Position numbers and translations under genes: made by a program. Under the pieces are notes generated by a model, which saw only the letters and a program-made list of their open reading frames with translations, ran no database searches and was not told the origin of the DNA. Shown here one piece after another: positions 3,845-28,307 of a stretch of 29,121 bases of DNA. Source of the DNA: a virus (Duplodnaviria; Heunggongvirae; Uroviricota; Caudoviricetes); the IMG/VR virus record IMGVR_UViG_3300032030_000021, positions 1 to 29,121 of that record. One strand, 5' to 3'. The first letter of the stretch is position 1, and every line of letters starts with the position of its first letter.

Positions 3845-4252
3845 ATGAAAACTCTACAAGAATCTATAATAGGAAGGCGGTCAAGTGATCGTACAATTAA
3901 TATAAATGATATAAAAACCGGAGATATTATAAAATTCCGAAGTGGTTTGTTGGCTATGGCTTACATCAATGAAGATAATTATTATTCCGGATTTTATTAT
4001 AATTTTACTAGTCCTAAGATGAAAAATACCACTAATTTAATAATGAGTAGTATGTTTTCAAAAGATTTAAAACATAAAATAGTTGACTATCTCGATATTA
4101 TAGATGTATACAGAGACCCTAATAATATTATAGGTAGCGACAAAAATTTTAAAGGATTTAAGGTCGGGCGGGATTATTCGGCTTTAGAAAAATCTAACCT
4201 TCAAAGACTGATAGATAATGGAGATTATGTAATAATATATGAAGAAAAATGA
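3845..4252 (+). CDS. ESIIGRK-leader family protein 1 (shared LxTGDIV...DIIDVY body)
   Basis: Starts MKTLQESIIGRRSS; body has IKTGDIIKFRSG...FSKDL...LDIIDVYRDP; GAATCTATAAT at 3860-3870. Confidence 0.85.
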   Translation: MKTLQESIIGRRSSDRTININDIKTGDIIKFRSGLLAMAYINEDNYYSGFYYNFTSPKMKNTTNLIMSSMFSKDLKHKIVDYLDIIDVYRDPNNIIGSDKNFKGFKVGRDYSALEKSNLQRLIDNGDYVIIYEEK

Positions 4253-4659
4253 AGACATTACAAGAATCTATAATAGGACGAAAAGGTGTCTCTTCCGGTA
4301 AAACAGGATTGTGGCAAATAGGTATGTTAGTTCCGGTATCTTCCAATAAAAAAGGCAAGATATATGACATATTGACACATATAACCGAGCAAAATAATCG
4401 TAGAGCTCGTAGAGCTAATTATGACAGCTATATAGATCAGTTATCCGATCTTTTGAAAATAAAATCCAATATTGCCGGTTTTAGAAACAAAGCGGAGGCT
4501 ATAGAAGTAGCTCAAAAATATGCAAAACAGATAAATCCGTCAGAATACAGATTTATAGGGATTACCAGAAGTTACGATGATGAACCGGGGTCTTTAGATT
4601 GGGATTATATATTAGGAATAGACAACAATCGTAAATTATTCATAATGCATAAAAATTAA
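4249..4659 (+). CDS. ESIIGRK-leader family protein 2 (unrelated body)
   Basis: Starts MKTLQESIIGRKG; ATGA overlap with the previous gene; GAATCTATAAT at 4264-4274. Confidence 0.85.
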   Translation: MKTLQESIIGRKGVSSGKTGLWQIGMLVPVSSNKKGKIYDILTHITEQNNRRARRANYDSYIDQLSDLLKIKSNIAGFRNKAEAIEVAQKYAKQINPSEYRFIGITRSYDDEPGSLDWDYILGIDNNRKLFIMHKN

Positions 4660-4669
4660 AAAAGAACAT

Positions 4670-4906
4670 ATGAAATCACTCAAAGAAAAAATCCAAGAAG
4701 AGATGGCTACCCCGGCTAATACTATGGGCGTTGGAAATCCGGTTCTCCCCGGTATGAATGGGGAAATAGGTTCCGGCGATACTTTTGTGGGTACGGGCAA
4801 GCCCAATGAGTCTAAAACTATTCCTATAAAGAAAATCAAACAGAAAAAAGGAAAAGGATATAAAAAATCCAAGAAATATCTTGAATGTCCCAAAGAAGAA
4901 GAATAA
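4670..4906 (+). CDS. Small protein with Gly/Pro-rich middle and Lys-rich tail; possible internal virion/DNA-binding protein
   Basis: MKSLKEKIQEE-MATPANTMGVGNP...KKIKQKKGKGYKKSKK; leader resembles the family leader. Confidence 0.7.
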   Translation: MKSLKEKIQEEMATPANTMGVGNPVLPGMNGEIGSGDTFVGTGKPNESKTIPIKKIKQKKGKGYKKSKKYLECPKEEE

Positions 4907-4963
4907 CCTATAAGAATTTATAAAATGAATTGATTATTTACAAAAAGAAAATATATAATACAT

Positions 4964-6613
4964 ATGAAAAGTCTATTTGAACATTTACAAGATTTTATGG
5001 AGGGTTGGCATACATCCTGGACCGAACCCGAATTCATGGGAGCTAAAACATCGACGGGTGTATATAACGATAAAGGTGAATATGCTACCTTTGTATTTAA
5101 TCCAAAAACTAAAAAATATGAGGCCACAGATCCAGATTCCGGTGATGTCTTATCTATGGATGATGTTATGCAATATTCATACGATACGGGATATGCTCCT
5201 ATGATTTGTCCTCCTAGCGTTGCAAATAACGATCCAAACAACAAATATAACCAATTGAATTTATCTCTCATGAATGTTGGGGGTAAAATCGAATCTTCCG
5301 AGAATGTAGATAAACTAAACGGTAAAAGCGCCGGTAGTTGGGCAGTGAATCCTCATATGACGGACGATGAACTTAAAGAATGGAAAAAGACGTCCCCGGA
5401 AGCATATAATGAAAATAGAGCCAATGTTCAGATGTATTGGAATTCGGTAGCTAGTCCGTCATCAAGAGAACACGGTGTGGCTGTAGTAGGTAAGGCCGGA
5501 TGGGGTAAATCCGAAATTATGACGTCGGTAGCCAGAGCGTCCGGATATGATGTCATCATTGTAAATTTGTCTATGGCAGCGTCTGAAGATGTATTGGGTA
5601 TTCCGGTTCCCGATAGAATGGCTTCCGGACAATTAAAAACCGAATATGCAGCTCCGGGTTGGTTGGCGTATGTAGCACAGCATCCTGATGATAAAATTTG
5701 CATTTTCTTTGACGAATTCAATCAAGCCAGCATGGATGTATTGGGCACTATTCAGAACTTCTTACTTACCAGAACCGTTAATGGGGTGGAATATAAGAAT
5801 ATTAAGTTTATGGCTGCCGGTAATGAAAAATCCGAGAACAGATCTTTAGTGAGAATGGAAGATCTGAACGCTATTCACCAAAGATTCAAAGTATGGCATT
5901 GGCTAACCGACTGGAATTACTATTTCGATTGGCATAGAAAAGAATTTGAAAAGAAACTTGGCAAGCCCCTTATGGATGAATTTGATGCCAATAAAGAATC
6001 TTTTGCTTCTCCTAGAAACTTAACTATACATATTTTCGGATGGATAGAAGAAGCTATTAATCATCTTAAAAAAGACCCTACTGATGTATCTATTTACACG
6101 GGAGACCGTATATTGACTATGTTCTATGACAATTCTATTGCAAAATGGAATGAGGATGAACATAAATTCGAGCAAATTTCAGATTCACAAGCCAAAAATC
6201 TTGCCGATCTAGCCGACTATGTAGCTAAATATATATATGATGCGGCTATCGGTGGTTCTACCAACACCGGATCCGGTCACACCTTCGGTTCCAAAAATCG
6301 TACTACTATGGAAAAATCGGATGTTCAAAGATTGAGAGATATGATGCAGGATGGATTTGTATTGGCGGAAGACGGTAATACATATGGTATATGTAAAGAA
6401 AACATCATGTATGTATTTGACGAATCTATATATCCGGCGGAAGTAGTAGAAAGAACTGTCGAAACACTGGAAAAAGTGGAAGGCATTAAATGGAAATATA
6501 CAACCAAAAAACAATGTAAGGCCGGATGCAAAAAAGAAGGAATTGCCGATAATATAGAAGTAGACTTGGATAAGTTTGTTGCCGATGATAAAGGTAATGT
6601 TACCGAAAAATAA
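4964..6613 (+). CDS. MoxR-type AAA+ ATPase
   Basis: Walker A GKAGWGKS, Walker B IFFDEFNQ, sensor-1 FMAAGN, Arg finger AIHQRF; adjacent to a vWA gene. Confidence 0.85.
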   Translation: MKSLFEHLQDFMEGWHTSWTEPEFMGAKTSTGVYNDKGEYATFVFNPKTKKYEATDPDSGDVLSMDDVMQYSYDTGYAPMICPPSVANNDPNNKYNQLNLSLMNVGGKIESSENVDKLNGKSAGSWAVNPHMTDDELKEWKKTSPEAYNENRANVQMYWNSVASPSSREHGVAVVGKAGWGKSEIMTSVARASGYDVIIVNLSMAASEDVLGIPVPDRMASGQLKTEYAAPGWLAYVAQHPDDKICIFFDEFNQASMDVLGTIQNFLLTRTVNGVEYKNIKFMAAGNEKSENRSLVRMEDLNAIHQRFKVWHWLTDWNYYFDWHRKEFEKKLGKPLMDEFDANKESFASPRNLTIHIFGWIEEAINHLKKDPTDVSIYTGDRILTMFYDNSIAKWNEDEHKFEQISDSQAKNLADLADYVAKYIYDAAIGGSTNTGSGHTFGSKNRTTMEKSDVQRLRDMMQDGFVLAEDGNTYGICKENIMYVFDESIYPAEVVERTVETLEKVEGIKWKYTTKKQCKAGCKKEGIADNIEVDLDKFVADDKGNVTEK

Positions 6614-6627
6614 ATTAAAATAAGCAT

Positions 6628-8730
6628 ATGGCATACGTTTCTATTGATAGAGACAGTCTGGCATTCACTAAGAATAGTATAAATAACGTAGATCCCGGTA
6701 ATCAAAAATTCTGCCGGGATCTCGTTGAGTTTATAGATATGTCTTGCATAACTTCGGATGATGACTTTTTCTATGATATGATGAAATTCATTCGATTTAT
6801 GAAGATGGACGGAATTGCCTGTACTGATACAAATGGTCTCATCATGATGAATCCTCCGCAGATGTTCAAATCTTTGCCGGAATGGGATTTTATTTATGAT
6901 CATGAATGCTTACATCAATTATGGGATACTTTTGGGGTAGCCGATAAGATTCAAGCTTCGGGTCAGCAATATGATCATGAACTTTTGAATATAGCCTCGG
7001 ATTGTGTTATTAATGACTATCTTGACTTTTATCGCGGCAAATCTATTCCCGGCGGTGCTAATGGAGGCCTAGTAACGCCGGAAAGTGTGAAAAATGACTT
7101 TGGTGTGGTATATGATAGATCCGTGGATACGCAGTATTCATTATACATAAAGATTATAAAGGCTTGTCAAGAAGATCCGAATCTAGCTAAAAAGATGAAG
7201 CAGAAATTCGGCAAGTTGCAGCCCAAGAAAGTAACTTACATGCCGCCCGGAAAAACCCCGCCCCCGCCTCCTCCTCAAAAGCATTCTCCGGATTTTATCA
7301 AGGGCTGGTGTGATGCTATCAATGATGTGTTTAAAGGAAAAGTAGATCCCCTTACTTATAGGCCAGCAGTTAACTTTATGAGTTTTGCCGCTAAATCTTC
7401 TAAGTCCGCTGATTGGCAAGCCGGTTATGATGCTGCTATGGAGCAGATCCGGATAGGCATGGAACAAGGCATCCAAGTTAGTAGTGGTTCCGGTGGTAGT
7501 GGTGGTGGAGATCTTCCTCAGATCCCGTGGGATATTCCTCCACAAGATCAAGACCAAATAGACAATATGGATGGTGATGAAGCTTCTGATACAGCAGACC
7601 AGGCCGCTCAAGAAGCCGAGCAGGCCGCTCGTGAAGCAGAAGCCGCTAACGATGGCTCCGAAAGCAAGCAAAACAATGCTAAAAAGGCTAAGGAAGCTGC
7701 CGGAAAGGCCAAAGAATTCGCCAGAAAAGCTCAAGATGCAGCTCGTCAAGGAGATGAAAAAGGAGCTAAAGAGGCAGCCAAAGAAGCGGTTACGGAGGCT
7801 CGTAAGGCCAAAGCGGCGGCGGAAGCCAACAAGCAATCCGGAAACAGAGGAAAGAATCCCGGCGGTGGTCCGAGTCAACGTGGTGACTATGAAGGATATG
7901 CCGAATTATCTTCAGAAGAGCTTTCCGAATTGGAAAAAGAGATGATCAACAACGGTACTATCCGAAGTGATACCAAAAAGACTTTAGGAAAATATTTAAG
8001 CCAGAGTGGTGGATTCATCGGCAATTTCCTCAAGAAGTGCAGAGTATCCAAAGATATGAAAGAATCCGGATTAGCTACCGATACAGGTCAAAAGAAAACC
8101 AACTGGGGCAAAAAAGTATTCGGTGAGATGAGTGATTATATTGCGGACATCGTTCAAGACCGTAAAATGCAATATAAACGCACATATGCTCGATTCAAAC
8201 GCGGCGCTATGGTTCCGGAGCCCGGAGAATTTTTATCCAAAGGCAAGCAATCTATAGAGGATAAATTCCCGATATCTATAGCATTCTGGGTGGATTGCTC
8301 AGGAAGTATGGGTAATGGCAACGGATCTGCTCTATACAATGCTTCCAAGTGTATGTATGCTCTTGCAGGCGCTATTGAAGATGAATGGTCCGATGAAGCA
8401 CTGATTTCCGAATTCGCCTTTGAGTATTATGCTTGGGATACTAGTATATATCCATTAAGAAAAGGTCAGATGCCATACAGTGGTGGAAGCACCATGTCTT
8501 TGGATGAATTAGTCAAAGGCATGATGGATCGTAAGAACACCAGCATGATCAATATTGTAATTACAGATGGTGGTGGTGGCTTGGGTTCCGCATTCGATAG
8601 ATATATCAAAGGAACCGGAAGTCTGGTAATATTCGTAACCAATTCACAGACACCGGATGTGAAACGCAAAGCGGAGAGCAGTAATGAACTTTCTTATGTG
8701 GAGGCTCCTTCCGATTTCAGTCTTAGTTAA
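6628..8730 (+). CDS. HExxH metallopeptidase-like domain plus vWA domain protein (DUF2201-like MoxR partner)
   Basis: IACTD...FIYDHECLH in the N-terminal part; low-complexity Pro/Gly/Ala/Lys linker; C-terminal MIDAS motif WVDCSGSM and IVITDG. Confidence 0.8.
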   Translation: MAYVSIDRDSLAFTKNSINNVDPGNQKFCRDLVEFIDMSCITSDDDFFYDMMKFIRFMKMDGIACTDTNGLIMMNPPQMFKSLPEWDFIYDHECLHQLWDTFGVADKIQASGQQYDHELLNIASDCVINDYLDFYRGKSIPGGANGGLVTPESVKNDFGVVYDRSVDTQYSLYIKIIKACQEDPNLAKKMKQKFGKLQPKKVTYMPPGKTPPPPPPQKHSPDFIKGWCDAINDVFKGKVDPLTYRPAVNFMSFAAKSSKSADWQAGYDAAMEQIRIGMEQGIQVSSGSGGSGGGDLPQIPWDIPPQDQDQIDNMDGDEASDTADQAAQEAEQAAREAEAANDGSESKQNNAKKAKEAAGKAKEFARKAQDAARQGDEKGAKEAAKEAVTEARKAKAAAEANKQSGNRGKNPGGGPSQRGDYEGYAELSSEELSELEKEMINNGTIRSDTKKTLGKYLSQSGGFIGNFLKKCRVSKDMKESGLATDTGQKKTNWGKKVFGEMSDYIADIVQDRKMQYKRTYARFKRGAMVPEPGEFLSKGKQSIEDKFPISIAFWVDCSGSMGNGNGSALYNASKCMYALAGAIEDEWSDEALISEFAFEYYAWDTSIYPLRKGQMPYSGGSTMSLDELVKGMMDRKNTSMINIVITDGGGGLGSAFDRYIKGTGSLVIFVTNSQTPDVKRKAESSNELSYVEAPSDFSLS

Positions 8731-8753
8731 TAGAAATTTTTAATATGTTTTAC

Positions 8754-8781
8754 AAAAGACCTTCCCCGAAGGTCTTTTTTT
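8754..8781 (+). terminator. Rho-independent terminator
   Basis: aaaagaccttc-cc-cgaaggtctttt inverted repeat plus T run after the vWA gene. Confidence 0.85.
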
Positions 8782-8833
8782 ATGCCTTAATGTTATGATG
8801 CCGGAGTATATATAAGATTATAATTTATCAGAT

Positions 8834-12432: not shown

Positions 12433-12436
12433 TTAC

Positions 12437-12460: not shown

Positions 12461-12515
12461 ATTCCTAAATATTTCGAGATCATAACATATATAATTATCA
12501 AATTATATACATAAT

Positions 12516-15211: not shown

Positions 15212-15239
15212 AAAAAAGGACTGTAAGGTCCTTTTTTTT
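15212..15239. terminator. Bidirectional terminator between convergent genes
   Basis: aaaaaaggac-tgtaag-gtcctttttttt with A and T runs on the two sides. Confidence 0.85.
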
Positions 15240-15618
15240 ATTTTATACGTTTGAATTTGTTATTTATTATAAGTTTCTGCAAAGCATTTTGACTAAAAAA
15301 TTCATCCTCGATTTCACTATATAAATAGTAATTGAGATATATACCTTCATCTCCATCATCTTCGTATCCCCATACTTCAATAATATTATATTTGCTTGAT
15401 CTTTTAGAACATAACTGATTATTGTATTCCGTAAGATATGGAGAAATTATTATATTGTGACTGGATCTGATTAATTTGCTATTTTGAAAATTATGCTTAT
15501 CAATGAGCACAAAATAGTAATTATTGTCGTTGAGTTTTACAACATATCCGGTTTTCAGATCATCTAGAAATACTCCGGACTTTTTCCTCCCTATTATAGA
15601 TTCATTAAAATACTTCAT
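15238..15618 (-). CDS. ESIIGRK-leader family protein 4 (shared body)
   Basis: MKYFNESIIGRKK...DLKTGYVVKLNDNNYYFVL...YNNQL...YNIIEVW; GAATCTATAAT on the minus strand at 15593-15603. Confidence 0.85.
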   Translation of the reverse strand: MKYFNESIIGRKKSGVFLDDLKTGYVVKLNDNNYYFVLIDKHNFQNSKLIRSSHNIIISPYLTEYNNQLCSKRSSKYNIIEVWGYEDDGDEGIYLNYYLYSEIEDEFFSQNALQKLIINNKFKRIK

Positions 15619-16195
15619 AAATTACATCATCTACTATTTTAGCTACCTTATCATCTCCTATTATATCATTAAGGAGTATGGGCTTTTTAGATTGGCTTGG
15701 GTTGGCTATATATAATGGATCTTTATATTCATACCCGTCTCTAACATGCGGAAATATAAATATAATAGTATTCCGAAATTCCGGTATAATACTCAATCCA
15801 TCGGATATGGCACTAGCCATAGCATCTATGTCCCATTTTGAATGAGTTCCCCATTCATCTCCTTGAAAAGTATATTCTACACATATGGCTTGTATATCAT
15901 TTCCGGATTCATTAAAGAATTGTCGAGGTACTGTTATCGGAAATATAGCACAATCTTTAGGGGCACACCAATTACCTAGAGTCCGAATAAGTTTGGAAGG
16001 ATTCTTATAAACTTTTTTAAATCCGGATCCGTTAGGATCATTTACGAGTCCAGCCCCATTATGATGAAATAAAGTATTTATTATCTTATAAGCTTTGTCT
16101 ATATTAAATTTTGCCGGATTGCTTGACATGTTCAATATAGAACTTAATGATGTAGTTCCTTTACGACCGATTATAGATTCTTTTATAGATCTCAT
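15605..16195 (-). CDS. ESIIGRK-leader family protein 3 (196 aa, unrelated body)
   Basis: MRSIKESIIGRKG; TAATG stop-start overlap with the RimK gene; motif at 16170-16180. Confidence 0.85.
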   Translation of the reverse strand: MRSIKESIIGRKGTTSLSSILNMSSNPAKFNIDKAYKIINTLFHHNGAGLVNDPNGSGFKKVYKNPSKLIRTLGNWCAPKDCAIFPITVPRQFFNESGNDIQAICVEYTFQGDEWGTHSKWDIDAMASAISDGLSIIPEFRNTIIFIFPHVRDGYEYKDPLYIANPSQSKKPILLNDIIGDDKVAKIVDDVIYEVF

Positions 16196-17850
16196 TATAG
16201 CTCGGTTTTTTCGATTTCCTTAGTCAGGAGGTGTGTCTTGGAAGGATTGATTATATAGCCCATCCAGCTCATCAATTCCCTATTCAGTAATATATTAGTG
16301 TTCTTCTTGATATCCGGTTCTTTAGCTAGTGCGATAGGAATATCGAAGATCATGCGGTTTCCTAGCCGGATGCTATGGAATTTCACAATAGGTCTGGTGG
16401 TTCTATTGCCACCCACAATAGGATTGCTTACGTCCTTATATTCTTTCTCGAAGGTAGTGCCTTGGATGGAGAATGTGACTTTCTTATGTTCTTCGTCGAT
16501 TTGCAGGTCCGGAATAGTCAGGCAGGTGGCTTTAGTGCCGTTGCCGGTATCCAGCTTGCCCAATAGTTCCAATGTATGTCCTTCATCTAGACTTAATTCT
16601 ACTGCTTCCACATATCCGGATTGTTTGTCTTGAAGGAAGAACTCTTTAGGATTAGTAAGCTCATTAACCATCACATTAACAAAATTCACACCCAGAACAT
16701 CGGTGATACCATCGGTACCCGGAGAGGCATTTAGTTCTAATACCACATTATCTCCCAGTTCTTTATTAGACCCTTTGACCAGTGGCATGATATCTACCGC
16801 ACACCAGGGGAGCTTGGAATACATAGCGGCTCGCAATGCTATCTGTTCTTGCTCGGAAGTGAGCTTGACCTTCTCGGCGGTAGCTCCTAGTGAGACATTG
16901 CTCCGGAAGTCACCGGAGATCTTCACCCTCTTCATAGCTCCTAAGATCACTTGTCTATCTCTCAAGGTCAGAACATGAACTCTTATGTCGCCCCCATCAG
17001 CTTCCTCTTTGGATTGTATGATAAGCTCTCTCTCCGGATCTACGGCAAAGATGGTCTGAAGGATAGCCATGAGCTTCTTGCCATCGGTCATGAACACACC
17101 GGTGCCGCCATGACCATCCAGGATCTTGACGACAAACTTCAGCTCTTCGTTCTTGTCGGAGTCTTTAGGGTTCCATTTCTCATTGACATCTTTCATGCGT
17201 TCATTAAAAAGCTCTTCGTTATGAATGATGTCTATAGAGAGCAGTGCAAAATTCGGTTGAGGGATGTCGTTTTTCCGCAATAGAGCGGCTGTCTTGTATT
17301 TATTGGAAGCTATCTGAGCGGGCTGCAGTGGATTTAATACTAGAAAACCTCTGTCTTGGATGATATTCAAGACTTCCTCGCAGTTGCCTTCTCCTTGTAC
17401 TCCCAATCTGGAAAATACTAGTGTATTAGCATTATTGAGACCTTCGAAATCCAGTTCATCATCATCATCTCTTATAGAGAATCCTTCTTCCGTTTCGGTA
17501 GCAATGGTTTTCTCCGCTAAGAATAGATGTAATTCCGGTACTAAAGATTTAGATTTTTTAATAGATTTGATAGCATCAAGAATATTTTTGAGAGTCTTGT
17601 TTTCTTTGGGATCTTTAGAGTTAGTGAATACTATCCAGTGTTCGAATATATTTTTGCATTCCTTGAATTTTAGATCCGCATATACTACGGGAAGGTCTTC
17701 CGATGGTGTTATTTTTTCAGGATCTTCGGGGTCATCGGTTTCCTGATTGACTTCCGTTATGGGTTCTTCAATAGGTTTAGTTGATTCTTGTATGTTATAA
17801 TATCTCCGGACATCTTCCGGAGACTCAAATTCGTTATACAACTTTTCCAT
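16195..17850 (-). CDS. rimK: RimK-family ATP-grasp ligase fused to a C-terminal retropepsin-like (RimB-type) protease, with an acidic N-terminal extension
   Basis: SNKYKT...IPQP, FVVKILDGHGGTGV, DIRVHVL, AMKR...DFRSNVSLGA, AVDI and VLELNASPG (RimK motifs); then GKLDTGN...R(T)RPIV...NILLNRELM (aspartic-protease-like). Confidence 0.8.
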   Translation of the reverse strand: MEKLYNEFESPEDVRRYYNIQESTKPIEEPITEVNQETDDPEDPEKITPSEDLPVVYADLKFKECKNIFEHWIVFTNSKDPKENKTLKNILDAIKSIKKSKSLVPELHLFLAEKTIATETEEGFSIRDDDDELDFEGLNNANTLVFSRLGVQGEGNCEEVLNIIQDRGFLVLNPLQPAQIASNKYKTAALLRKNDIPQPNFALLSIDIIHNEELFNERMKDVNEKWNPKDSDKNEELKFVVKILDGHGGTGVFMTDGKKLMAILQTIFAVDPERELIIQSKEEADGGDIRVHVLTLRDRQVILGAMKRVKISGDFRSNVSLGATAEKVKLTSEQEQIALRAAMYSKLPWCAVDIMPLVKGSNKELGDNVVLELNASPGTDGITDVLGVNFVNVMVNELTNPKEFFLQDKQSGYVEAVELSLDEGHTLELLGKLDTGNGTKATCLTIPDLQIDEEHKKVTFSIQGTTFEKEYKDVSNPIVGGNRTTRPIVKFHSIRLGNRMIFDIPIALAKEPDIKKNTNILLNRELMSWMGYIINPSKTHLLTKEIEKTEL

Positions 17851-18811: not shown

Positions 18812-19199
18812 ATTGATTTATATTTATAGGTTTCACATTATCTATAATCCAATTTATATAATCTTTTAATTTTATAGGATTATATCGAACATCCCATAAA
18901 ATTTTTTTATTTCTAGGCTTGCGATAAACCCGGACTATGTCGAACTGTCTATTAATTCTATCAGAACCTGTCGCTTTCAGATTGTCATCCCAGCTGGTTG
19001 TATAATTAGCAGCAATATGAAATTCTCCAAAATTTCCAACGGAAGTAATAAAAGCATCGTGTTTATCATAATAATATTTTGGAGTAAAAACAAAAAATAT
19101 ACCAGCTACAGATTCTACTATATCGCCTCCTTGCAAGCTTTGTTTTGTGATCGAGATTGCTCCTTTTCTTCCTATTATAGATTCTAATAATGTTTTCAT
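18810..19199 (-). CDS. ESIIGRK-leader family protein 6 (shared body)
   Basis: MKTLLESIIGRKG...LQGGDIV...WDDNL...FDIVRVYRKP; ATGA overlap with the upstream paralog; motif at 19174-19184. Confidence 0.85.
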   Translation of the reverse strand: MKTLLESIIGRKGAISITKQSLQGGDIVESVAGIFFVFTPKYYYDKHDAFITSVGNFGEFHIAANYTTSWDDNLKATGSDRINRQFDIVRVYRKPRNKKILWDVRYNPIKLKDYINWIIDNVKPININQ

Positions 19200-19648
19200 C
19201 TTTCAAATATTTTAGTTACACCGGATTTGATCATATTACATATATTATCCTGTTGAATGGATTTTATTCCATTTCTTAACCATAAAGTTCCTGCGGGTGA
19301 CCGATATATAGTCAATGGGTTAGAATTAAACATTTTTTCCAGAGAAGGCTCTCCGTGGTAATAAAAATGATTATCAAATCTAGATAAATCTAATATAATT
19401 ACTTCAGTTAAACTGAATCCAAACACCAATATGCCTTCCGGGTAATAGTCCGTTGTCGGTATAGAATGAGAGGAGTTTGTTAAAACTTGAGAAAATTTAT
19501 TGACAAAAGAATTCAATTCACCGGGCAACCAAACAACTCCGAAAATATCCCTATTTTCAATCCAAAATATGTCGCCGGTCGATAGATTCGTTTTGCCTTG
19601 TTTAGTTATTCCCCTTCTTCCTATTATAGATTCTATTAGCGTCTTCAT
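19196..19648 (-). CDS. ESIIGRK-leader family protein 5 (shared body, divergent)
   Basis: MKTLIESIIGRRG...LSTGDIFW...FDNHF...LTIYRSP; ATGA overlap with the M15 gene; motif at 19623-19633. Confidence 0.85.
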   Translation of the reverse strand: MKTLIESIIGRRGITKQGKTNLSTGDIFWIENRDIFGVVWLPGELNSFVNKFSQVLTNSSHSIPTTDYYPEGILVFGFSLTEVIILDLSRFDNHFYYHGEPSLEKMFNSNPLTIYRSPAGTLWLRNGIKSIQQDNICNMIKSGVTKIFER

Positions 19649-20109
19649 ATTTTCACATATGTTTTTCCGTTATAATATAAACGTTGTTTCCGATTAGTGC
19701 CGTTCCATTTGTGAGATACATGAATCCATTGGGGAGCGGTGAGTGTACCTTTCTCTAAAATCAGCTGATCAAACGGCAACCTCATAGACACTATAGTATC
19801 AAAAAGCTTGCGCGTTTTGACTGTATCCAGCACGTTCTTGCCTCCCACTTTCTTAACACAATAGATATCCGCGGCTTGTCCGGACATATGCTGGCTGGTT
19901 TTAGAGCCGCCGACCTTAGAATTCAAGGCCTTGCAACGGTATCCGGAAGATACTATGATCGGACATCCCATCTTAACTCTCAATGGATCCAAGATATTTT
20001 CTATCAGTTTGGTGAGGTTTTGTGTTTCTATTATGCTGGGAACATTTTTTATGCCATATTTATCGGCGGTAGAACTCTTGCATAATTCGGATATAGTGAA
20101 GTATTTCAT
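19645..20109 (-). CDS. Peptidase M15 family Zn peptidase (putative endolysin)
   Basis: SSGYRC..LN..VGG...SQH..GQAADI...WIHVS (H-x6-D...H Zn ligands). Start reassigned to ATG 20109 (MKYFTISEL), which has TTATTATT 19 nt upstream. Confidence 0.85.
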   Translation of the reverse strand: MKYFTISELCKSSTADKYGIKNVPSIIETQNLTKLIENILDPLRVKMGCPIIVSSGYRCKALNSKVGGSKTSQHMSGQAADIYCVKKVGGKNVLDTVKTRKLFDTIVSMRLPFDQLILEKGTLTAPQWIHVSHKWNGTNRKQRLYYNGKTYVKI

Positions 20110-20202
20110 ATTATCAAGATTTTGACAAAATAATAATCTTATTTCATTACAATCATTAAGATCTTCAAATATTCGATTATATATTATCAAAATTAAGAAA
20201 GT

Positions 20203-20790
20203 ATGAAAATTATTCTTGTAGGAGCACATGGTACCGGCAAAACAACATTAGCTAATATGTTGAGTGACTATTATAATTGGCCTGTTATTGAAAGTGCAAG
20301 CCGCGATATCAAGTCTCTGATGGATTCGGGTAAGATTAATATAGGAGAAAAAGATTATCATGAACTGATTACGGCTATTAATGTCAAGTTATGGAAAGAT
20401 ACGGACCGTGCTAGCGATAATACGAATTTCATATATGCCCGGACTATTATAGATAATATCGCTTATAGTGGTGATTTTGTAGGTATTAATGATCTTCATC
20501 ATTCCGGATTATATAACCAATTGACGACTGTAAATGGTCTTAATGCCTTCCGAAATGCTGCGATTGTCAGGGTTCCGATAGAATTCGATCCCGAAGATGA
20601 TGGTGTCCGATATACGGATCCGGAATATCAGAAAAAAATCTCCGATCGCCAGCAGTGTATTTTATCGGCATTGTGTTATGATGGAATTATCGATCACGAT
20701 GATATTGTAGTGGTTCACGGCACTCCCGAAGAAAGATGCAATCAGGTAATATCTTCATTATCTAAGTATATTAACCATATCGATATCTAA
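20203..20790 (+). CDS. P-loop NTPase / nucleotide-kinase-like protein (AAA_28/NadR-kinase type)
   Basis: MKIILVGAHGTGKTTL Walker A; YARTIIDNIAY; VPIEFDPEDDGVR lid-like motif. Confidence 0.75.
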   Translation: MKIILVGAHGTGKTTLANMLSDYYNWPVIESASRDIKSLMDSGKINIGEKDYHELITAINVKLWKDTDRASDNTNFIYARTIIDNIAYSGDFVGINDLHHSGLYNQLTTVNGLNAFRNAAIVRVPIEFDPEDDGVRYTDPEYQKKISDRQQCILSALCYDGIIDHDDIVVVHGTPEERCNQVISSLSKYINHIDI

Positions 20791-20991
20791 TCCGGGAGAA
20801 TTTGCTCCTATATGCAGTTTGCTTCCTTTTTCGGTATTTAGAATATATATAATTTCATTTTTATATAATTCATATCGATCTATTATCCCAGAAGCATCTA
20901 TCTTCATGCATTTTGTTGTCATGTGTACGTTCTTGCCGATGATCGAGTCGGCAAATTCAAGATCATTATACAAATTGTTGTTGTCCGGCAT
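20758..20991 (-). CDS. Hypothetical protein (77 aa)
   Basis: ATG start; divergent from the 21024 gene; 33-nt convergent overlap with the kinase gene. Confidence 0.6.
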   Translation of the reverse strand: MPDNNNLYNDLEFADSIIGKNVHMTTKCMKIDASGIIDRYELYKNEIIYILNTEKGSKLHIGANSPGLDIDMVNILR

Positions 20992-20992
20992 A

Positions 20993-21013
20993 TGATTATT
21001 TTTAAAATAATCA
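20993..21013. promoter_or_regulatory. 21-bp palindrome between divergent genes
   Basis: tgattatttt-t-aaaataatca; each arm contains TGATTATT. Confidence 0.5.
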
Positions 21014-21023
21014 ATATTTTTTT

Positions 21024-22175: not shown

Positions 22176-22236
22176 TTTTATGCTTAATATTTAGAAATTC
22201 CGCTTATATAATATTGTAATTGGAATAACTAAAAAT

Positions 22237-22629
22237 ATGAAGCGTTTAATTTTAAAGATTAAGAAAAAGCTCTCTATCAACACCGGAGAAAAAATTTCTC
22301 GTTCCGAACGTTATACTACTATGGCAGCACTGGGTCTGATGCGAATTCCCGACACCGAACTCTTAATTCACCCGACCAAGGATCGTTATTATATTCATGC
22401 CGGAAATGATCAGTATCTGATAATTATCAATATTTATCCGGCCACAGTCACTTTGATTAACCATAAGCTTTCACACGATGTTAAGTATAGCAGAAGAGCT
22501 ATGGATTTTTTACAAAACAAGTTTTTGGAAGTAACTGAAAAACGAAGAGATAAATTTGAAAAAAAGTTTTTAGATAATACCGAAAATTCACTCAGATCCG
22601 TTGCTCTCAGCATAATGAATTTAAAGTGA
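22237..22629 (+). CDS. Hypothetical protein (130 aa); stop codon lies in the IS right end
   Basis: ATG with A-rich leader; ends AAG TGA, where GTGAA (22626-22630) is the IS terminus. Confidence 0.75.
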   Translation: MKRLILKIKKKLSINTGEKISRSERYTTMAALGLMRIPDTELLIHPTKDRYYIHAGNDQYLIIINIYPATVTLINHKLSHDVKYSRRAMDFLQNKFLEVTEKRRDKFEKKFLDNTENSLRSVALSIMNLK

Positions 22630-22760
22630 ACTACCCAGCCGCTAAAGGCGGCCGAGCTTCCCGTCTTTGAAGAGATCCTTGCATTTATCGTAAGAGATCT
22701 TCTTCCCGGGCTTTAAGTCGACGGTCCCCGCCGACTGTATAGCTTTATAGAACCCGATCA
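22606..22760 (-). ncRNA. Predicted TnpB omega/reRNA scaffold plus flanking guide (5' boundary approximate)
   Basis: TnpB reRNAs are known to overlap the tnpB 3' end and right end. The guide would be the flank after TTCAC: TTTAAATTCATTATGCTGAG. Confidence 0.5.
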
Positions 22761-23172
22761 TATTCTTTGCCGCATGCACGTCCCGGTCTCCGGTCTCGCC
22801 GCATTTCGGGCACACAAAGGTCCGTTGGGATAGATCCATCGCGGCATCGGTCCCACAGGACAGGCAGCGCTTCGTAGTCGGAAACCATTGGTCTAACACG
22901 AATACATTATCTTTTCTTCTCAGCTTAGCCTTGACCCTTCCGAGCACGGAATGCTGGACCGTCTTGGATAGATGCTCGTCTTCGCGCCATTCCCGGTGCC
23001 GGACCCGTGTAGCCTTACCGGCTTCGCTTATAGCTCTATTTTTGTCTAATCGACTCATATCTAAATAATAAGATCCGGATTAATATCGTTAATGTTTCTT
23101 ATATTTATATTAGTAGCCAATCTGTGTATCCATGCAGCTAAAGGCTACACGGTTTTACAGATTGAAATTATA
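22626..23172 (-). mobile_element. Non-autonomous IS200/IS605-family (IS1341-like) mini-element
   Basis: On the minus strand the right end reads ...GGCCGCCTTTAGCGGCTGGGTAGTTCAC. The left-end hairpin CAATCTGT...CCTTTAGC...ACAGATTG spans 23118-23164. A candidate TAM TTTAT lies at 23173-23177. No tnpA is present. Confidence 0.8.
22642..23058 (-). pseudogene. tnpB: tnpB with a large in-frame internal deletion
   Basis: Keeps QHSVLGRVKAKL, WFPTTKRCLSCG, FVCPKCG (Zn ribbon) and DRDVHAAKN (RuvC-III). Only 138 aa; RuvC-I Asp and RuvC-II Glu motifs are not visible. Confidence 0.8.
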
Positions 23173-23187
23173 ATAAATTTTTGATAT

Positions 23188-24552
23188 ATGAAGAAAATAG
23201 TAGTTTGTGGTTTAGGTTACGTAGGACTGGTGCATATTCTAGGGTGCTGGATAAGTGCTCGGGACAATGGTGCCCGAGATTATATGTTTATAGGATATGA
23301 TCCGGATGAAGAGAAAATCAATAAAATCATGTCTGGTGAGTGTCCGATTGTAGAACCAGGTCTGCCCGAGGTCTTGAATGATGCCTTGAAGGATCCGGAT
23401 CATTTTAAAGTATGCTCCGATCCGGCCTGTTGGTACTGCGACCCGGATGTAGATATGGTATTTTGCTGTGTCGGAACCCCAATGTCCGATGATGGATCCG
23501 CTGATTTAAGATATGTATATGAACTGGCGGAGAGTTTCGGGGCACATATCGGAAATCTTCAAGCCACATTTGTGAATAAATCTACGTGTCCGGTTGGAAC
23601 CTGTAATGTATTGTATAATATTATTATTGGAAATTTAAATTTCGGTAATTCAAACATCGGAGTACTTTCCAATCCGGAATTTCTTGCGGAAGGAACGGCA
23701 TTAAACGACATGCTATCTCCGGATAGAATTGTTATCGGAGGTATAACGGATCATGTCGAGAGATTGAGAGAATTTTATAAGTCTATTGGCCTCATGCCAG
23801 ATGAAGCTGACTGCGTGGCCACTACATGGGAGAATGCCGAATTAATTAAATACGCTTCCAATGCCATGTTAGCCACACGTATTAGCTTTGTCAATGACTT
23901 AGCCGATTTATGTGAAAAAGTTGGAGCCGATGTAAGAATCGTGACCGAATGTATGGGTATGGACCATAGGATCGGACAGGCATTTTTAAAGCCGGGTCCC
24001 GGATATGGGGGGTCGTGTTTTCCAAAAGATACTAATGCATTATTGCATCAAGGTATATCTAATGGCGTAGAAATGAGGGTGGTAGATGCCGTTATTAGAA
24101 GTAATACATATCACCGGGAAAAGGCTTCCAATATAGTATCGGAACTTATCGGATATGTCGGACCTAAGGGTATTGGAAAAATCGGAGTCATCGGAGCCGC
24201 ATTTAAGTCCGGTACCGGAGACTTGCGGGAATCTCCGGCGGTAGATCTTCTCCGATATCTGGCGAATTTGGGTAAGGAAATTATGGTATTTGATGAGAAT
24301 GTTTCCGAAAAGGAGTTATCTTATGCCGTACCATGCGATCATCCGGAGCGCTTGATAATGAGCCCGTTAGAAGATTTAAAAGATTGTAATTTGGTAATAA
24401 TCATGAATCCGGAAAACATTGTATGGCCGGAAGCCGGAACTCATGATATCCGAATAGTATTAGATATGAGATGTTGTGTGTCCGATTCGACCATTAAAGA
24501 TTTTGAAAATCAAGGAATTATATATATCGGACACGGACGTGGTAATATATAA
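23188..24552 (+). CDS. ugd: UDP-glucose 6-dehydrogenase (UDP-glucose/GDP-mannose dehydrogenase family)
   Basis: GLGYVG, CVGTP, NKSTCPVGT, SNPEFLAEG, AELIKYASNAMLATRISFVN, GPGYGGSCFPKD (catalytic Cys) and AFKSGTGDLRESP. Confidence 0.92.
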   Translation: MKKIVVCGLGYVGLVHILGCWISARDNGARDYMFIGYDPDEEKINKIMSGECPIVEPGLPEVLNDALKDPDHFKVCSDPACWYCDPDVDMVFCCVGTPMSDDGSADLRYVYELAESFGAHIGNLQATFVNKSTCPVGTCNVLYNIIIGNLNFGNSNIGVLSNPEFLAEGTALNDMLSPDRIVIGGITDHVERLREFYKSIGLMPDEADCVATTWENAELIKYASNAMLATRISFVNDLADLCEKVGADVRIVTECMGMDHRIGQAFLKPGPGYGGSCFPKDTNALLHQGISNGVEMRVVDAVIRSNTYHREKASNIVSELIGYVGPKGIGKIGVIGAAFKSGTGDLRESPAVDLLRYLANLGKEIMVFDENVSEKELSYAVPCDHPERLIMSPLEDLKDCNLVIIMNPENIVWPEAGTHDIRIVLDMRCCVSDSTIKDFENQGIIYIGHGRGNI

Positions 24553-24627
24553 TATCTTTTATAGTGCACAATACTCGTAATATTATAAAGATTTATAAAA
24601 AACTTTTTGTATCAGATATATAAGAAC

Positions 24628-26370
24628 ATGATAAAAGTTTGTATTGCCGAAAAGCCTAATGTAGCAAAATCTATTGCTAAAGTTCTTGGTGTTCGAGATT
24701 ATAAAGACGGATATATAGAAGGAGATAGTCCATTGCTTGAGTGTCATGTGTTTGTAACCTGGACTTTTGGACACCTTTGTGAATTGAAAACCCCCGGAGA
24801 ATATAATAGGAGATGGAGTAAATGGAATCTCAGAAATCTTCCCATGATTCCTTCAAGTTTTGGAATTAGGGTTAAAGACGATGAAGGTATCAAAAAGCAA
24901 TTTAATACCATCAAAATGCTATTAGAACAATGTGATGAATGTATTAATTGCGGAGATGCAGGACAAGAAGGCGAATTAATTCAGAGATATGTTCTTCAAC
25001 AGGCCGGGTTCAAGAAGCCGGTCAAGCGCCTTTGGATTTCATCTCTAACGGATGAAGCTATTAAAAACGGTTTCCGAAACCTGGATAATGCATCTAAATA
25101 TGATAATGTTTATCGCGCAGCTCTTTGTAGAAGCATCGGGGATTGGTTAGTAGGAATGAATGCAACGCAATACCAGACTCTTATATCCGGTAATCGAAGC
25201 CTATTATACTCCGTAGGCAGGGTCCAGACTCCAACACTTGCGCTTATAGTGAATCGGCAAAAAGAAATAGATGCCTTTGTACCGGAAAAATATTATGATT
25301 TTACAGCCATTTGCCAAAAGGTAAAATTTGAAGGAGCCAATACATTTAAAGATAAAAAACAAGCCGAAGAGGTCTTCAAGAAAATCAAAGACCTTCCAAT
25401 GGTCATTTCCAAAGTGGAGCATAAGAAGCAATCCGAGAAGCCACCACAACTATTTGATCTCACCTCCTTACAGGTGGAAATGAATAAGAAAAACGGATGG
25501 AGTGCCGACGATACTCTTAATACCTTGCAATCTCTCTATGAAAAACAGCTGGTAACCTACCCACGTGTAGATACTCGTTATCTTCCGGAAGACATGTATG
25601 AAGAATGCAAGCGGATTCTTTCCGGACTCATCTCCGATTATGACTGCGAAGGCGATATGCCCGACGAAATTAAGAAATCAAGAGATATTTTTGATAATAA
25701 GAAAATTACGGACCACCACGCCATTATCCCGACCGGCAAATGGGATAGTAATATCACCTCGGAAGAGCATACCCTATATGATGTAATAGCCCGGAGATTA
25801 TTGTGTGCGTTTGCCCGACCCTTTCTTACAGCTAATACATATGTTGAGAGTACAGTTGGTGATGAGAAATTCAAAGCATCCGGGCGCACTGTTTTAGACA
25901 TGGGCTGGAGAGAGATAGCTCGTATCAAATCCGAAGATGAACCAATGCCGGAATTTGTAAAAGGCAAAGAATACAATCAGTCCATGAAGCTTAATTCTCA
26001 TACCACCAAAGCACCGGCATATTACACGGAAGCAACCTTATTAAGAGCTATGGAAACAGCCGGCAAGATGGTTACGGATGAAGAAATGGCGGAAGCTATG
26101 AAGGAAAACGGCATAGGCAGGCCATCTACAAGAGCCGCTATTCTAGAATTGCTTTTCAAAAGAAAATATTTAATTCGAGATGGCAAGTCTATCAAACCCA
26201 CCGCTACAGGCATATACCTGATTGATCATATCAAGGATCCCATTCTAAAATCTCCGGAACTCACGGGACAATGGGAGTGCAAGCTCCGCAAGATAGAAAG
26301 GGGTGAATATGACCCGAAAAAATTCAAAGAAGAACTTTATGATTTTGTTAAAGATATCGTAAAAAAATAA
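24628..26370 (+). CDS. topB: Type IA DNA topoisomerase (topoisomerase III, Bacteroidales-type)
   Basis: IAEKP, VTWTFGHL, NCGDAGQEGELI, RLWISSLT, SVGRVQTPTL, LVTYPRVD (catalytic Tyr), DHHAIIPT and GIGRPSTRA. ATG 24628 is preferred to the listed TTG 24607. Confidence 0.92.
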   Translation: MIKVCIAEKPNVAKSIAKVLGVRDYKDGYIEGDSPLLECHVFVTWTFGHLCELKTPGEYNRRWSKWNLRNLPMIPSSFGIRVKDDEGIKKQFNTIKMLLEQCDECINCGDAGQEGELIQRYVLQQAGFKKPVKRLWISSLTDEAIKNGFRNLDNASKYDNVYRAALCRSIGDWLVGMNATQYQTLISGNRSLLYSVGRVQTPTLALIVNRQKEIDAFVPEKYYDFTAICQKVKFEGANTFKDKKQAEEVFKKIKDLPMVISKVEHKKQSEKPPQLFDLTSLQVEMNKKNGWSADDTLNTLQSLYEKQLVTYPRVDTRYLPEDMYEECKRILSGLISDYDCEGDMPDEIKKSRDIFDNKKITDHHAIIPTGKWDSNITSEEHTLYDVIARRLLCAFARPFLTANTYVESTVGDEKFKASGRTVLDMGWREIARIKSEDEPMPEFVKGKEYNQSMKLNSHTTKAPAYYTEATLLRAMETAGKMVTDEEMAEAMKENGIGRPSTRAAILELLFKRKYLIRDGKSIKPTATGIYLIDHIKDPILKSPELTGQWECKLRKIERGEYDPKKFKEELYDFVKDIVKK

Positions 26371-26585
26371 TGATAATATTCGCTTCTATGATATTTTTAT
26401 TAACTTTAGCATGCATTTTCATGGTCCTGTATAGATACATATATGATTGCAATCGGACCAAAATCAATCCGGATACACAAGTTAATCGGAACACACCCGG
26501 CAATTTGATCTGGAAGCTTTTAGGAAGCTTCATTCCCATACTGCATTTGTATATTATATACTACGAAGCAAAAAATTTACGTTAA
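26370..26585 (+). CDS. Small membrane protein (71 aa, two hydrophobic segments)
   Basis: TAATG overlap with topB; MIIFASMIFLLTLACIFMVLY and LIWKLLGSFIPILHLYIIY. Confidence 0.7.
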   Translation: MIIFASMIFLLTLACIFMVLYRYIYDCNRTKINPDTQVNRNTPGNLIWKLLGSFIPILHLYIIYYEAKNLR

Positions 26586-26626
26586 ACTGCGGCGAGTTCG
26601 CAAATCAATTTTTTTCATGATTATGG

Positions 26627-26656
26627 GAAAGGCATTCTAATGAGTGCCTTTCTTTT
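26627..26656 (+). terminator. Rho-independent terminator
   Basis: gaaaggcattc-taat-gagtgcctttc plus tttt (one G-U pair). Confidence 0.75.
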
Positions 26657-26684
26657 ATTATTTTTGGTAGAATATACAAATAAG

Positions 26685-27401
26685 ATGGATAATTTTAGTG
26701 AACATGTCGGTTTTCAAGTATGGGATGGACATAATAATCTGATCGGCGGAGACGGCAGGATAGTATGCAAACGCAATGTTTGTGCCGTAAATCCAGATGC
26801 TATAGGTTCTCATTATGATATGATTAGTAAATTTATAGAAGAACAATATGACCCAAAATTCCATATATTACTAGCCTCCGGAGATAATATCACGGACCTG
26901 CAAAAATCCATGTCTCTAAAGCAATGTAAGGGCATAGGCGAAATCTTTGTGTTGAAACACAAGAATCTTTATACTACTCCGATAGTTAATTATAACATGC
27001 TAGATATTGTCCGGGAAGATCTTCGGCCAGTGTATCTTCATTGGGACATGATCAAAGATCCGGAATGGGAAAGACTTGAAAAATTCCTGAGAGGGCATCG
27101 GAGTCCCGTTGTATTATGTCATTTAGGTATCAATAAGGAATTCAACAATCAGAAATCCGTTATCAAAAAATTCAAAAAACTCCAAAAAGAATATGATAAT
27201 CTCTGGGGAGAGATCTCTTGGGATGCACTGGATTGGGTATGCAAATATCCGGAAAGTATAAAAGGGATGGACGAAGATCGGATATTCACCGCCTCCGATC
27301 TAGCTCCGTTGGATAATCAAAATAAACGGGAACTGCAAATAGCTTCCATGTCGGGATTGATCAGCAGCTCTAATAACATCAAAAAACTATTCGGAATATG
27401 A
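26685..27401 (+). CDS. Amidohydrolase-superfamily (TIM-barrel metal-dependent hydrolase)-like protein
   Basis: WDGHNN (degenerate D-x-H-x-H), PVYLH, PVVLCHLG, NLWGEIS and DRIFTASD in the usual order. Start reassigned to ATG 26685 because the listed 26640 start lies inside the terminator. Confidence 0.6.
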   Translation: MDNFSEHVGFQVWDGHNNLIGGDGRIVCKRNVCAVNPDAIGSHYDMISKFIEEQYDPKFHILLASGDNITDLQKSMSLKQCKGIGEIFVLKHKNLYTTPIVNYNMLDIVREDLRPVYLHWDMIKDPEWERLEKFLRGHRSPVVLCHLGINKEFNNQKSVIKKFKKLQKEYDNLWGEISWDALDWVCKYPESIKGMDEDRIFTASDLAPLDNQNKRELQIASMSGLISSSNNIKKLFGI

Positions 27402-27832
27402 AAACACTAATTGAATCTATAATAGGGAGAAAATCATCCAATACACCGCTTGTCAATGCCAGAACAAGACTCAGACAGGGAGATATTGTTTATTTTGAGA
27501 AGTCAAATTTAGGCCCATACTTGGTAATTTTGGACAAAAACTTATATAAAAGAATCAGCCAAAGATCAACACCGAAAGATGAGGCTGAAAAAGACGGGTT
27601 TCTTGTACAGAGTCAATATAAATATGGGTATTATATGGTACCATTATCCGGATATGATAAAGATCTTCGATATAAATTAAATTCGGATTATGATATTACA
27701 ACGGTATTAAGAGGAAACGAAATATCGTCGGATGATATTGAAGATGTATGGGATTTTATTGATTGGTACCATTTAAGTAATCTCACCGATAAATTCAAAG
27801 TAGTATTTAAAGACGAAAAATGGATAAAATAA
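27398..27832 (+). CDS. ESIIGRK-leader family protein 7 (shared body)
   Basis: MKTLIESIIGRKS...LRQGDIVYF...YLVI...YDKDL...YDITTV; ATGA overlap; motif at 27413-27423. Confidence 0.85.
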   Translation: MKTLIESIIGRKSSNTPLVNARTRLRQGDIVYFEKSNLGPYLVILDKNLYKRISQRSTPKDEAEKDGFLVQSQYKYGYYMVPLSGYDKDLRYKLNSDYDITTVLRGNEISSDDIEDVWDFIDWYHLSNLTDKFKVVFKDEKWIK

Positions 27833-27839
27833 ATTTATA

Positions 27840-28307
27840 ATGAAAACATTAACCGAATCTATAATAGGGAGAAAAAGTGATGCGATAGAATGGCCCGTTC
27901 TAGATAAAATCCGGAATCAGGAATTTTCGGATTTGATTCCTTATAACATTGTCAAGGTAGACTATTCCGAACCACATGGATCTAAATATGGAATAATAGT
28001 TCCGGAAGACATTGCGTCAAAATTCTTTGGAGTCCAATATAGGGAATACAAGGGAAAATGCGGCTCCGTTTTATTTTATGATCCCGCAACTCATGGAGAA
28101 ATAGTTTTTGTCGCAATAGATCATTATAAAAAACAATTTCCAAGACCATTTATCAATCGGGTGGGATTTGAAATAATTGATATATGGGATGGATCTAAAG
28201 CTTGGCGGACATTTGAATATCGTCTTAAAACAGTTGAAGATTATGCAAAATTCCTAAGGTGGTCCGTTGATAAACCGGAAGAATTTGAAAGAATGTTAAA
28301 ACCGTAG
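27840..28307 (+). CDS. ESIIGRK-leader family protein 8 (shared body, divergent)
   Basis: MKTLTESIIGRKS...DLIPYNIVKV...FEIIDIW; motif at 27855-27865. Confidence 0.85.
   Translation: MKTLTESIIGRKSDAIEWPVLDKIRNQEFSDLIPYNIVKVDYSEPHGSKYGIIVPEDIASKFFGVQYREYKGKCGSVLFYDPATHGEIVFVAIDHYKKQFPRPFINRVGFEIIDIWDGSKAWRTFEYRLKTVEDYAKFLRWSVDKPEEFERMLKP

Follow-up and report, generated by a model that had tools for sequence, protein, structure and literature searches.

The stretch of viral DNA described here (the window, 29,121 nucleotides of the IMG/VR record IMGVR_UViG_3300032030_000021) is the first 29 kb of one 130,540-bp contig of a tailed phage (Caudoviricetes). Eight of its open reading frames (ORFs) all begin M-[KR]-x-[LIF]-x-E-S-I-I-G-R-[KR] (Table 1). 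We refer to this shared N-terminal segment as the tag, and to the remainder of each protein as its body. A six-frame scan of the window found ESIIGR-type strings after M-x4 at these eight starts only. The starts and first 12 residues listed in the initial annotation are real and exactly as quoted, and the (L/I/F)-x-E that it placed at residues 4-6 is present in all eight, followed by serine. Our results show that the tag is a portable module whose coding DNA is a joint for the recombination of gene cassettes. On the best-supported reading it may also direct small proteins into the phage head.

The eight genes occupy four loci. The stop codon of the 3845 gene and the start codon of the 4249 gene share an ATGA, and a late-promoter-like ATAAATA motif lies ~50 nt 5' of the 3845 gene. 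The 15605 gene is found directly 3' of a RimK-like ATP-grasp gene, and the 19196 gene directly 3' of an M15 endolysin gene. An AAA ATPase comes after the genes at 3845, 4249 and 4670.

Table 1. Tagged genes of the window and the features next to them (positions are those of the window; protein starts as sequence tokens).
Feature	Coordinates	Strand	Tag	Protein start	Remarks
Tagged gene, 135 aa	3845..4252	+	3845-3883	MKTLQESIIGRR	superfamily A body
Tagged gene, 136 aa	4249..4659	+	4249-4287	MKTLQESIIGRK	orphan body, basic, isoelectric point (pI) 9.6
ORF of 78 aa after two tagged genes	4670..4906	+		MKSLKEKIQEEM	L-K-E at residues 4-6
Tagged gene, 126 aa	15238..15618	-	15580-15618	MKYFNESIIGRK	superfamily A body
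Tagged gene, 196 aa	15605..16195	-	16157-16195	MRSIKESIIGRK	orphan body
RimK-like ATP-grasp protein, 551 aa	16195..17850	-			Pfam, 88 bits; heads operon with two tagged genes
Tagged gene, 129 aa	18810..19199	-	19161-19199	MKTLLESIIGRK	superfamily A body
Tagged gene, 150 aa	19196..19648	-	19610-19648	MKTLIESIIGRR	singleton body
Peptidase_M15_3 endolysin	19645..20229	-			Pfam; followed by two tagged genes
Tagged gene, 144 aa	27398..27832	+	27398-27436	MKTLIESIIGRK	superfamily A body, AlphaFold2 model
Tagged gene, 155 aa	27840..28307	+	27840-27878	MKTLTESIIGRK	second-family body, AlphaFold2 model

The initial annotation had proposed a motif search of the whole genome. Across the whole contig, 36 ORFs start M-x4-ESI[IL][GD][RK] and three more carry variant copies. 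Tagged genes make up almost a quarter of the genes (163 ORFs called) and are spread over at least 12 loci in 130 kb. We also searched IMG/VR and the JGI metagenomes with a fully codon-degenerate DNA pattern of the tag. Multi-copy matches came from one clade of uncultured contigs only (IMG/VR 3300032030_000026, _28 and _107; Ga0310696, Ga0310697, Ga0265299 and AUXO01), and those outside the clade were sporadic single matches in short or unrelated ORFs. Since multi-copy matches are confined to a single clade, chance offers no explanation for the tag. Proteins with MKQKFESIIGRK in contigs L021, L034 and L061 were set aside as a chance match; they belong to an unrelated family. Separately, seven genes at 115481-128159 start MK(V/I)QIRQGVFETNSS, a beginning unrelated to the ESIIGRK tag. 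An ESIIGRK-type motif is absent from Pfam and PHROG families and found no match in the literature searched, in agreement with the earlier remark that it belongs to no recognised family.

The bodies behind the tag are diverse. The 196 unique tagged proteins fell into 53 BLAST clusters, which hhalign merged only in part. By profile comparison the bodies of 3845, 15238, 18810 and 27398 form superfamily A, the 27840 body joins a second family, that of an eight-gene array at 47.7-51.2 kb, and 4249, 15605 and 19196 each stand alone. The initial annotation had regarded 4249 and 15605 as orphans, which holds, and had placed the other six in one group, which does not: 19196 is a third orphan and the remaining five make up two families. 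Its view of the leader as a portable module on unrelated bodies is supported by both the clusters and the profiles, and the family-A body is also found with other leaders or with none. Tagged proteins have a median pI of 7.75, compared with 5.15 for other small phage proteins, and only 8/36 of them are acidic versus 39/61 of the others.

Structure prediction of the bodies, also proposed earlier, was run on 27398 and 27840 from their family alignments and yielded well-folded bodies with no convincing structural relative. In both AlphaFold2 models the body reached a predicted local distance difference test score of ~90, while residues 1-14 stayed below 50. The tag is the only invariant block in the alignments of both families; in the models it is a disordered N-terminal extension and no part of the fold. 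Comparing the 27398 model with the PDB by Foldseek, AFDB clusters and BFVD, and the 27840 model with VIA-align wide, gave weak rows only, namely SH3/PWWP-like barrels and NlpC/P60- or LRAT-like folds with Z of at most 5.2. As these fold matches are weak and there are no conserved Cys or His residues, the modelled bodies were assigned no function. Likewise, none of the eight bodies matched Pfam or PHROGs above threshold, the ESM Atlas held no usable match for 15605, and a word-indexed homology search returned only close orthologues for 27398 and 35512.

The models bear on the idea that the tag is a secretion or membrane-association signal, in the form of a short amphipathic N-terminal helix. 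They show no helix in residues 1-14. A direct reading of the 13 residues finds basic side chains at positions 2, 11 and 12 and aliphatic ones at 4, 8 and 9, as such a helix might have, but there are three hydrophobic residues only and no h-region, lipobox, Cys or twin arginine. Moreover, by our own reading, Arg11 would share a helical face with L4 and I8. We regard a secretion or membrane role as very improbable.

Selection acts on the tag as a peptide. In 166 further tags, Gly10 is written GGA 79 times, GGG 55 times, GGC 20 times and GGT 12 times, position 11 is written AGG, CGG, AGA or CGA, and position 4 holds Ile or Leu throughout, spelled by eight different codons. The flanking codons vary synonymously while the residue is kept, and this is selection on the peptide. 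Between these codons lies a 14-nt core, GAATCTATAATAGG, which is nearly fixed in the clade despite free codon choice. In the 36 tags of the genome, the codons for E-S-I-I are GAA in 36/36, TCT in 30/36, ATA in 35/36 and ATA in 33/36, whereas genome codon usage otherwise is 0.71 for GAA, 0.28 for TCT and 0.37 for ATA. The same four codons are present in 161, 152, 156 and 157 of the 166 further tags. If the copies were independent, 35/36 ATA would have a probability near 1e-14 by our own arithmetic, though the copies are related. The bodies and the neighbouring codons are nevertheless saturated with change. Selection thus works on the tag both as a peptide and as DNA. The initial annotation saw a protein leader and missed both the near-invariant DNA core and its part in recombination.

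Two explanations of the core were rejected. It is no general promoter, as its occurrences outside tags sit inside genes, and it is no tRNA-gated ATA-ATA codon pair, as the contig encodes no tRNA. The frozen core is a property of this lineage, and partly of L090 (described below), and is best read as concerted evolution at a crossover site.

To look at recombination directly, 199 DNA windows centred on tags were compared pairwise. In 37 pairs the two were alike 5' of the tag and unrelated 3' of it, and in 19 pairs the reverse was seen; only 10 pairs were alike on both sides, giving 56 flank-discordant against 10 concordant pairs. The likeness ends +14 to +25 from the start of the core, or begins at -16 to -1. 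Furthermore, at 4/4 tagged loci of the window, comparison with syntenic relatives reveals gain, loss or replacement of whole cassettes, with the junctions in tags. L007 and L038 are without the 19196-19648 body; 55 nt in its place align to both tags, and the junction falls within the tag. At 4249, L009 carries two additional cassettes. L010 is without the 15238-15618 body and carries additional cassettes beside the RimK-like gene. In L017, both flanks and both tags are kept and an unalignable body replaces 27398. These alignments show the tag to be a joint where gene cassettes recombine.

Aberrant tags look like footprints of unequal exchange at this joint. At 63519-63977 the 5' half of the tag is doubled (MKHIS-KSITESIIG), at 102309-102641 an 11-residue insertion splits the tag exactly between residue 5 and the core, and L058:9507-9899 has two complete tags in tandem. 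The fused gene 66817-67641 holds an internal copy, MSISESIIGRKG, and internal copies were seen only in fusions or duplications. In addition, the start codons of 16/36 tagged genes run into the stop codon of the gene before (gap -4 or -1), which makes them look translationally coupled.

The arrangement recalls the mobile regulatory cassettes named PeSL in T4-type phages (Arbiol et al. 2010, PMC2839356), in which a short conserved DNA element at the borders of small variable ORFs likewise mediates their shuffling as modules between related phages. Integron cassettes, with a conserved DNA element at the cassette boundaries, are a looser analogy. The joint described here differs from both in being coding sequence: it is the first ~40 nt of the gene and encodes a selected peptide, and it is neither a promoter plus stem-loop nor an attC hairpin. 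We identified no dedicated recombinase: a scan of ~55 proteins, not exhaustive for the genome, contained no integrase.

Do other lineages keep the DNA or the peptide? An alignment profile of family A retrieved 411 representative proteins among 1.84 billion. Among the best 149 of these 411, 81 carry the canonical tag, ~16 carry variant tags, ~20 carry a different leader of ~25 residues and ~25 carry no leader. The different leader reads MKILNxxNFISERIKVKPVTNAE(W/L), with I-x-E at residues 10-12. It was seen on SH3-like family-A bodies in L089, L091, P0058, P0077, P0078, P0132, P0134 and P0139, and adjacent genes share it, on metagenomic contigs of only ~1 kb. The variant tags belong to other T4-like lineages, for example MKHLxEGLIKQRG and MKHIFEYLFSKKSD, are written in different DNA, and are each shared by whole arrays. 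The protease of L090, a T4-like contig, has 77% identity to that of the phage described here, and five genes of L090 start MKHLxEGLIKQRG, in conserved DNA of its own. In L092, 11/12 small genes start MKHIFEYLFSKKSDLDKI; their synonymous sites vary freely, and Ser is written with both AGY and TCN codons. In L094, 15/17 start MKxLK(E)(S/A)LIxK. Sister lineages thus keep M-K-x-[LI]-x-E-x-[LI]-[IF]-x-K/R in different DNA. As the peptide pattern survives where the tag DNA differs, the pattern is what lineages keep. The B-type tag DNA pattern had no matches in IMG/VR.

These observations weigh on the proposal that the tag is mainly an adaptor at the DNA or RNA level, which would supply a start codon, a favourable initiation region in a host group with little Shine-Dalgarno use and homology for exchange, the peptide having no specific job. 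An adaptor would fit a core with almost no synonymous variation, a predominance of purines at the third positions of codons 10-13, starts that overlap the preceding stop, recombination junctions that map to the tag, and duplicated, split and tandem tags. It does not fit a peptide pattern that persists in different DNA, including the lineage with Ser AGY/TCN switches, or a Gly10, an Arg11 and an aliphatic position 4 that are kept through many codons. AT-richness alone gives no reason for ATA over ATT or TCT over TCA, and the core outside tags is not placed like a promoter. We find it quite improbable that the tag is an adaptor in the main.

The phage itself is of a distant T4 type and probably infects Bacteroidota, judging by its S77/Gp23 head genes and the relatives of its capsid protein. 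A fusion of protease and scaffold at 36102-37517 matches Pfam Peptidase_S77 (43.3 bits, cutoff 27) and a PHROG head maturation protease (E 8.8e-45), and the capsid protein at 51280-53169 matches Pfam Gp23 (81.1 bits, cutoff 24.4). The phage encodes, by these Pfam matches, a prohead protease and a capsid protein of T4 type, which fits the reading of the initial annotation. Other PHROG matches include tail sheath, gp6-like baseplate wedge, gp2-like DNA end protector, tail fibre, DNA polymerase, helicase and ligase. The nearest GenBank relatives of the capsid protein, at ~30% identity, are from Prevotella Lak phages and from Tenacibaculum, Chryseobacterium and Flavobacterium jumbo phages. No family-A bodies were found in Lak-A1, Tenacibaculum pT24, PTm1 or Chryseobacterium MA9V-2, and the whole genomes of pT24, PTm1 and MA9V-2 showed no enriched N-terminal motif; these cultured relatives do not carry such tagged arrays.

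Tagged genes keep company with head and tail genes. Two lie directly 5' of the protease gene, eight lie directly 5' of the capsid gene, and four come next after the baseplate wedge gene, with 3 nt in between. A positionally conserved gene of 153 aa beside the protease starts MK(T/S)ITESILDR. Three promoter-like motifs were found at fixed distances from start codons. TTATTATTT, at ~-28, precedes tag arrays, the baseplate wedge gene and the AAA ATPase gene. GATTATATA, at ~-29, precedes the ligase, sigma factor and PurA-like or metabolic genes, often after a terminator hairpin and CTTAA-N-ATTT. The T4-late-like ATAAATA precedes the protease, sheath and 3845 genes. In the window such motifs stand 5' of 1448, 3845, 4964, 12516, 13728, 14908, 16195-17850, 21024 and 28370. 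The contig encodes a sigma factor of its own (91639-92616).

The initial annotation had likened the tag to MKTYQEFIAE, the capsid-targeting sequence (CTS) of T4, and this resemblance finds support. In the T4 record (AF158101), ipIII and ipII both start MKTYQEFIAE, with DNA identical over 33 nt, and follow the lysozyme gene e. By our own count, MKTLQESIIG matches it at 6/10 residues and 22/30 nt, in a stretch too short for a formal test of homology. The MKTINEYLFS of L092 is intermediate, with E-Y-L where T4 has E-F-I. The ten residues of the T4 CTS suffice for head targeting, in which positions 4 and 7 are important; positions 8 and 10 are important for processing (PMC9026906). The protease gp21 cleaves after L/I-x-E, often before a small residue, and internal proteins co-purify with the scaffold gp22 (PMC9026906). 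The L/I-x-E motif on which gp21 acts is present in the tag, as had been pointed out: in the tags [LI]-x-E stands at residues 4-6, and the next residue is S, G or A.

The likeness goes beyond the peptide. The T-even internal proteins are diverse, with >30 variants that have only the CTS in common, encoded at two recombination-prone loci (PMC3012670, PMC2839356). In T4 IPII and IPIII, as in the phage described here, a short and strictly N-terminal peptide precedes otherwise unrelated small proteins in a phage whose protease is of the S77 family and whose head is of the gp23 type. Both the T4 CTS and the tag, in its MKTLQE variants, start M-K-T-x-Q-E and have the L/I-x-E motif, and the T4 gene order e, ipIII, ipII resembles the endolysin gene and the two tagged genes that follow it here. 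There are differences too. T4 has three such genes at two loci, whereas here 36-39 copies occupy at least 12 loci per 130 kb. The tag is 13 residues long, is strongly conserved after its only Glu, and has Gly at residue 10 (I-I-G at residues 8-10) in place of the cleaved Glu10 of T4. Unlike in the T-even internal protein loci, the joint is inside the coding tag and not in flanking promoter or stem-loop elements.

We therefore favour the reading that the tag is a capsid-targeting signal for head packaging and cleavage. It is the best supported of those considered, and we place it a little short of an even chance. The tag M-[KR]-[THS]-[LI]-x-E-S-I-I-G-[RK]-[KR]-G would be a derived form of the T4 CTS. 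As a flexible N-terminal peptide it would dock small, fast-evolving cargo proteins onto the prohead core, here the scaffold part of the fusion protein that carries the S77 protease. The cargo would then be enclosed in the head, probably trimmed by the protease after [LI]-x-E at residues 4-6, and would enter the host cell along with the DNA. The 14-nt core and a few surrounding codons are the crossover point at which bodies are gained, lost and exchanged among paralogues and related phages. With the crossover in the tag, any incoming body gains a start codon and the tag at once.

Several findings weigh against head targeting. Most tag arrays sit behind the TTATTATTT-type motif and not behind the ATAAATA of the protease and sheath genes. 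The [LI]-x-E motif is not depleted in tagged bodies, where it occurs at 1.19 times the shuffled expectation, compared with 1.18-1.21 times in untagged proteins, while by our own reading mature T4 IPII and IPIII have none. T4 is cut after residue 10, where the tags have Gly. Seven strongly conserved residues past E6 would be odd for a discarded propeptide, and in L094 the Glu is missing in about two thirds of the tags. The 36-39 different cargo proteins per genome are far above the three of T4. Finally, a position-specific scoring matrix of the tag detected no tag-like site in the scaffold or capsid protein; the LTES, IEES and IKES sites in the scaffold are not significant. An extended protease specificity (E-S-I-I-G) would, speculatively, reconcile several of these points.

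Some of the same findings suit a different partner. The tag might dock onto another hub, a cytoplasmic phage or host protein such as a chaperone or unfoldase, RNA polymerase, the ribosome, or a modifying enzyme such as a RimK-like ligase, and the tagged proteins would then act unpackaged in the producing cell. A disordered, conserved linear motif is what such docking would use. Conservation past the putative cleavage site, [LI]-x-E that is not depleted in bodies, and sister-lineage tags without the E also agree with it, as do a RimK-like ATP-grasp gene that heads the operon of 15605 and 15238 and an AAA ATPase after 3845, 4249 and 4670. However, no single candidate partner adjoins most arrays: the RimK-like gene, the candidate for RiPP-like recognition of a leader by a co-encoded modifying enzyme, stands before two of the eight tagged genes, and other arrays follow unrelated genes. 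Docking elsewhere predicts neither the likeness to the T4 CTS in both peptide and DNA nor the clustering by protease, capsid, baseplate and endolysin genes, and the lineage-specific tag variants suit a phage-encoded partner better than a host one. We consider another hub rather unlikely.

Head targeting has parallels in other phages. In the giant phages phiKZ, 201phi2-1 and SPN3US, many proteins are loaded in the head and trimmed after S/A-x-E by a diverged gp21 homologue (PMC9026906). Since these heads load many processed proteins, dozens of packaged species are feasible. The giant-phage head proteins differ in having no single shared N-terminal tag and in forming large paralogous families rather than cassettes of 100-200 aa, and no relationship of the tagged proteins to them was detected. 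In phage P1, the N-terminal 30 residues of DarB suffice to send a reporter into the capsid (PMC9024508). DarB differs in being a single large protein of an unrelated phage, and there is no consensus among Dar proteins.

Neighbouring features merit brief description. The ORF at 4670-4906 has no family match and carries ATPANTMGVGNPVLPGMN, which resembles residues 56-76 of the N-terminal arm of the capsid protein (13/21 identical, pairwise E 4e-6). From this similarity, the ORF may be a small head-core protein or capsid-arm mimic and possibly a relative of the tagged genes. Related contigs keep the RimK-like gene at ~90% nt identity; candidate substrates of its product include ribosomal protein S6 and, as a speculation, the tags. 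Taken at its longest, the M15 endolysin ORF shares 27 nt with the start of the divergent dTMP-kinase gene (20203-20790, +). Because its Pfam match starts at residue 42, the true start may be the internal MKYFTISE. An ORF of 138 aa at 22642-23058 (-) has transposase PHROG matches. It shares HLSKTVQHSVLGRVKAKLR and a near-identical hairpin-containing upstream region, with one mismatch in 90 nt, with a gene of 413 aa at 109048-110289 (-), and the same transposase-like element, 94% identical, lies at another position in L038. The 22642-23058 ORF looks like a truncated copy of a mobile element of the IS200/IS605 or TnpB type.

A wider scenario, which we consider possible and on balance doubtful, would join these strands. 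A descendant of the T4 CTS may have become the joint of an integron-like cassette system, in which every T4-related lineage of the gut or rumen has a tag of its own that matches its scaffold. Dozens of injected anti-defence or takeover effectors would be swapped in and loaded into the head, and the conservation after the Glu would be an extended protease site that spares the [LI]-x-E of the cargo.

If the tag is a packaging signal, these phages would have by far the largest known repertoire of genome-delivered proteins, comprising about a quarter of their genes and ~50 sequence families, and injected effectors of uncultured phages could be recognised by a simple rule based on the tag sequence. 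Whatever its function, one short sequence is selected at two levels, as a peptide across lineages and as a 14-nt core within a lineage. The cassette exchange point offers a concrete mechanism by which T4-type genomes stay plastic at their periphery, and the tag could serve as a protein-delivery handle for engineered Bacteroidota phages.

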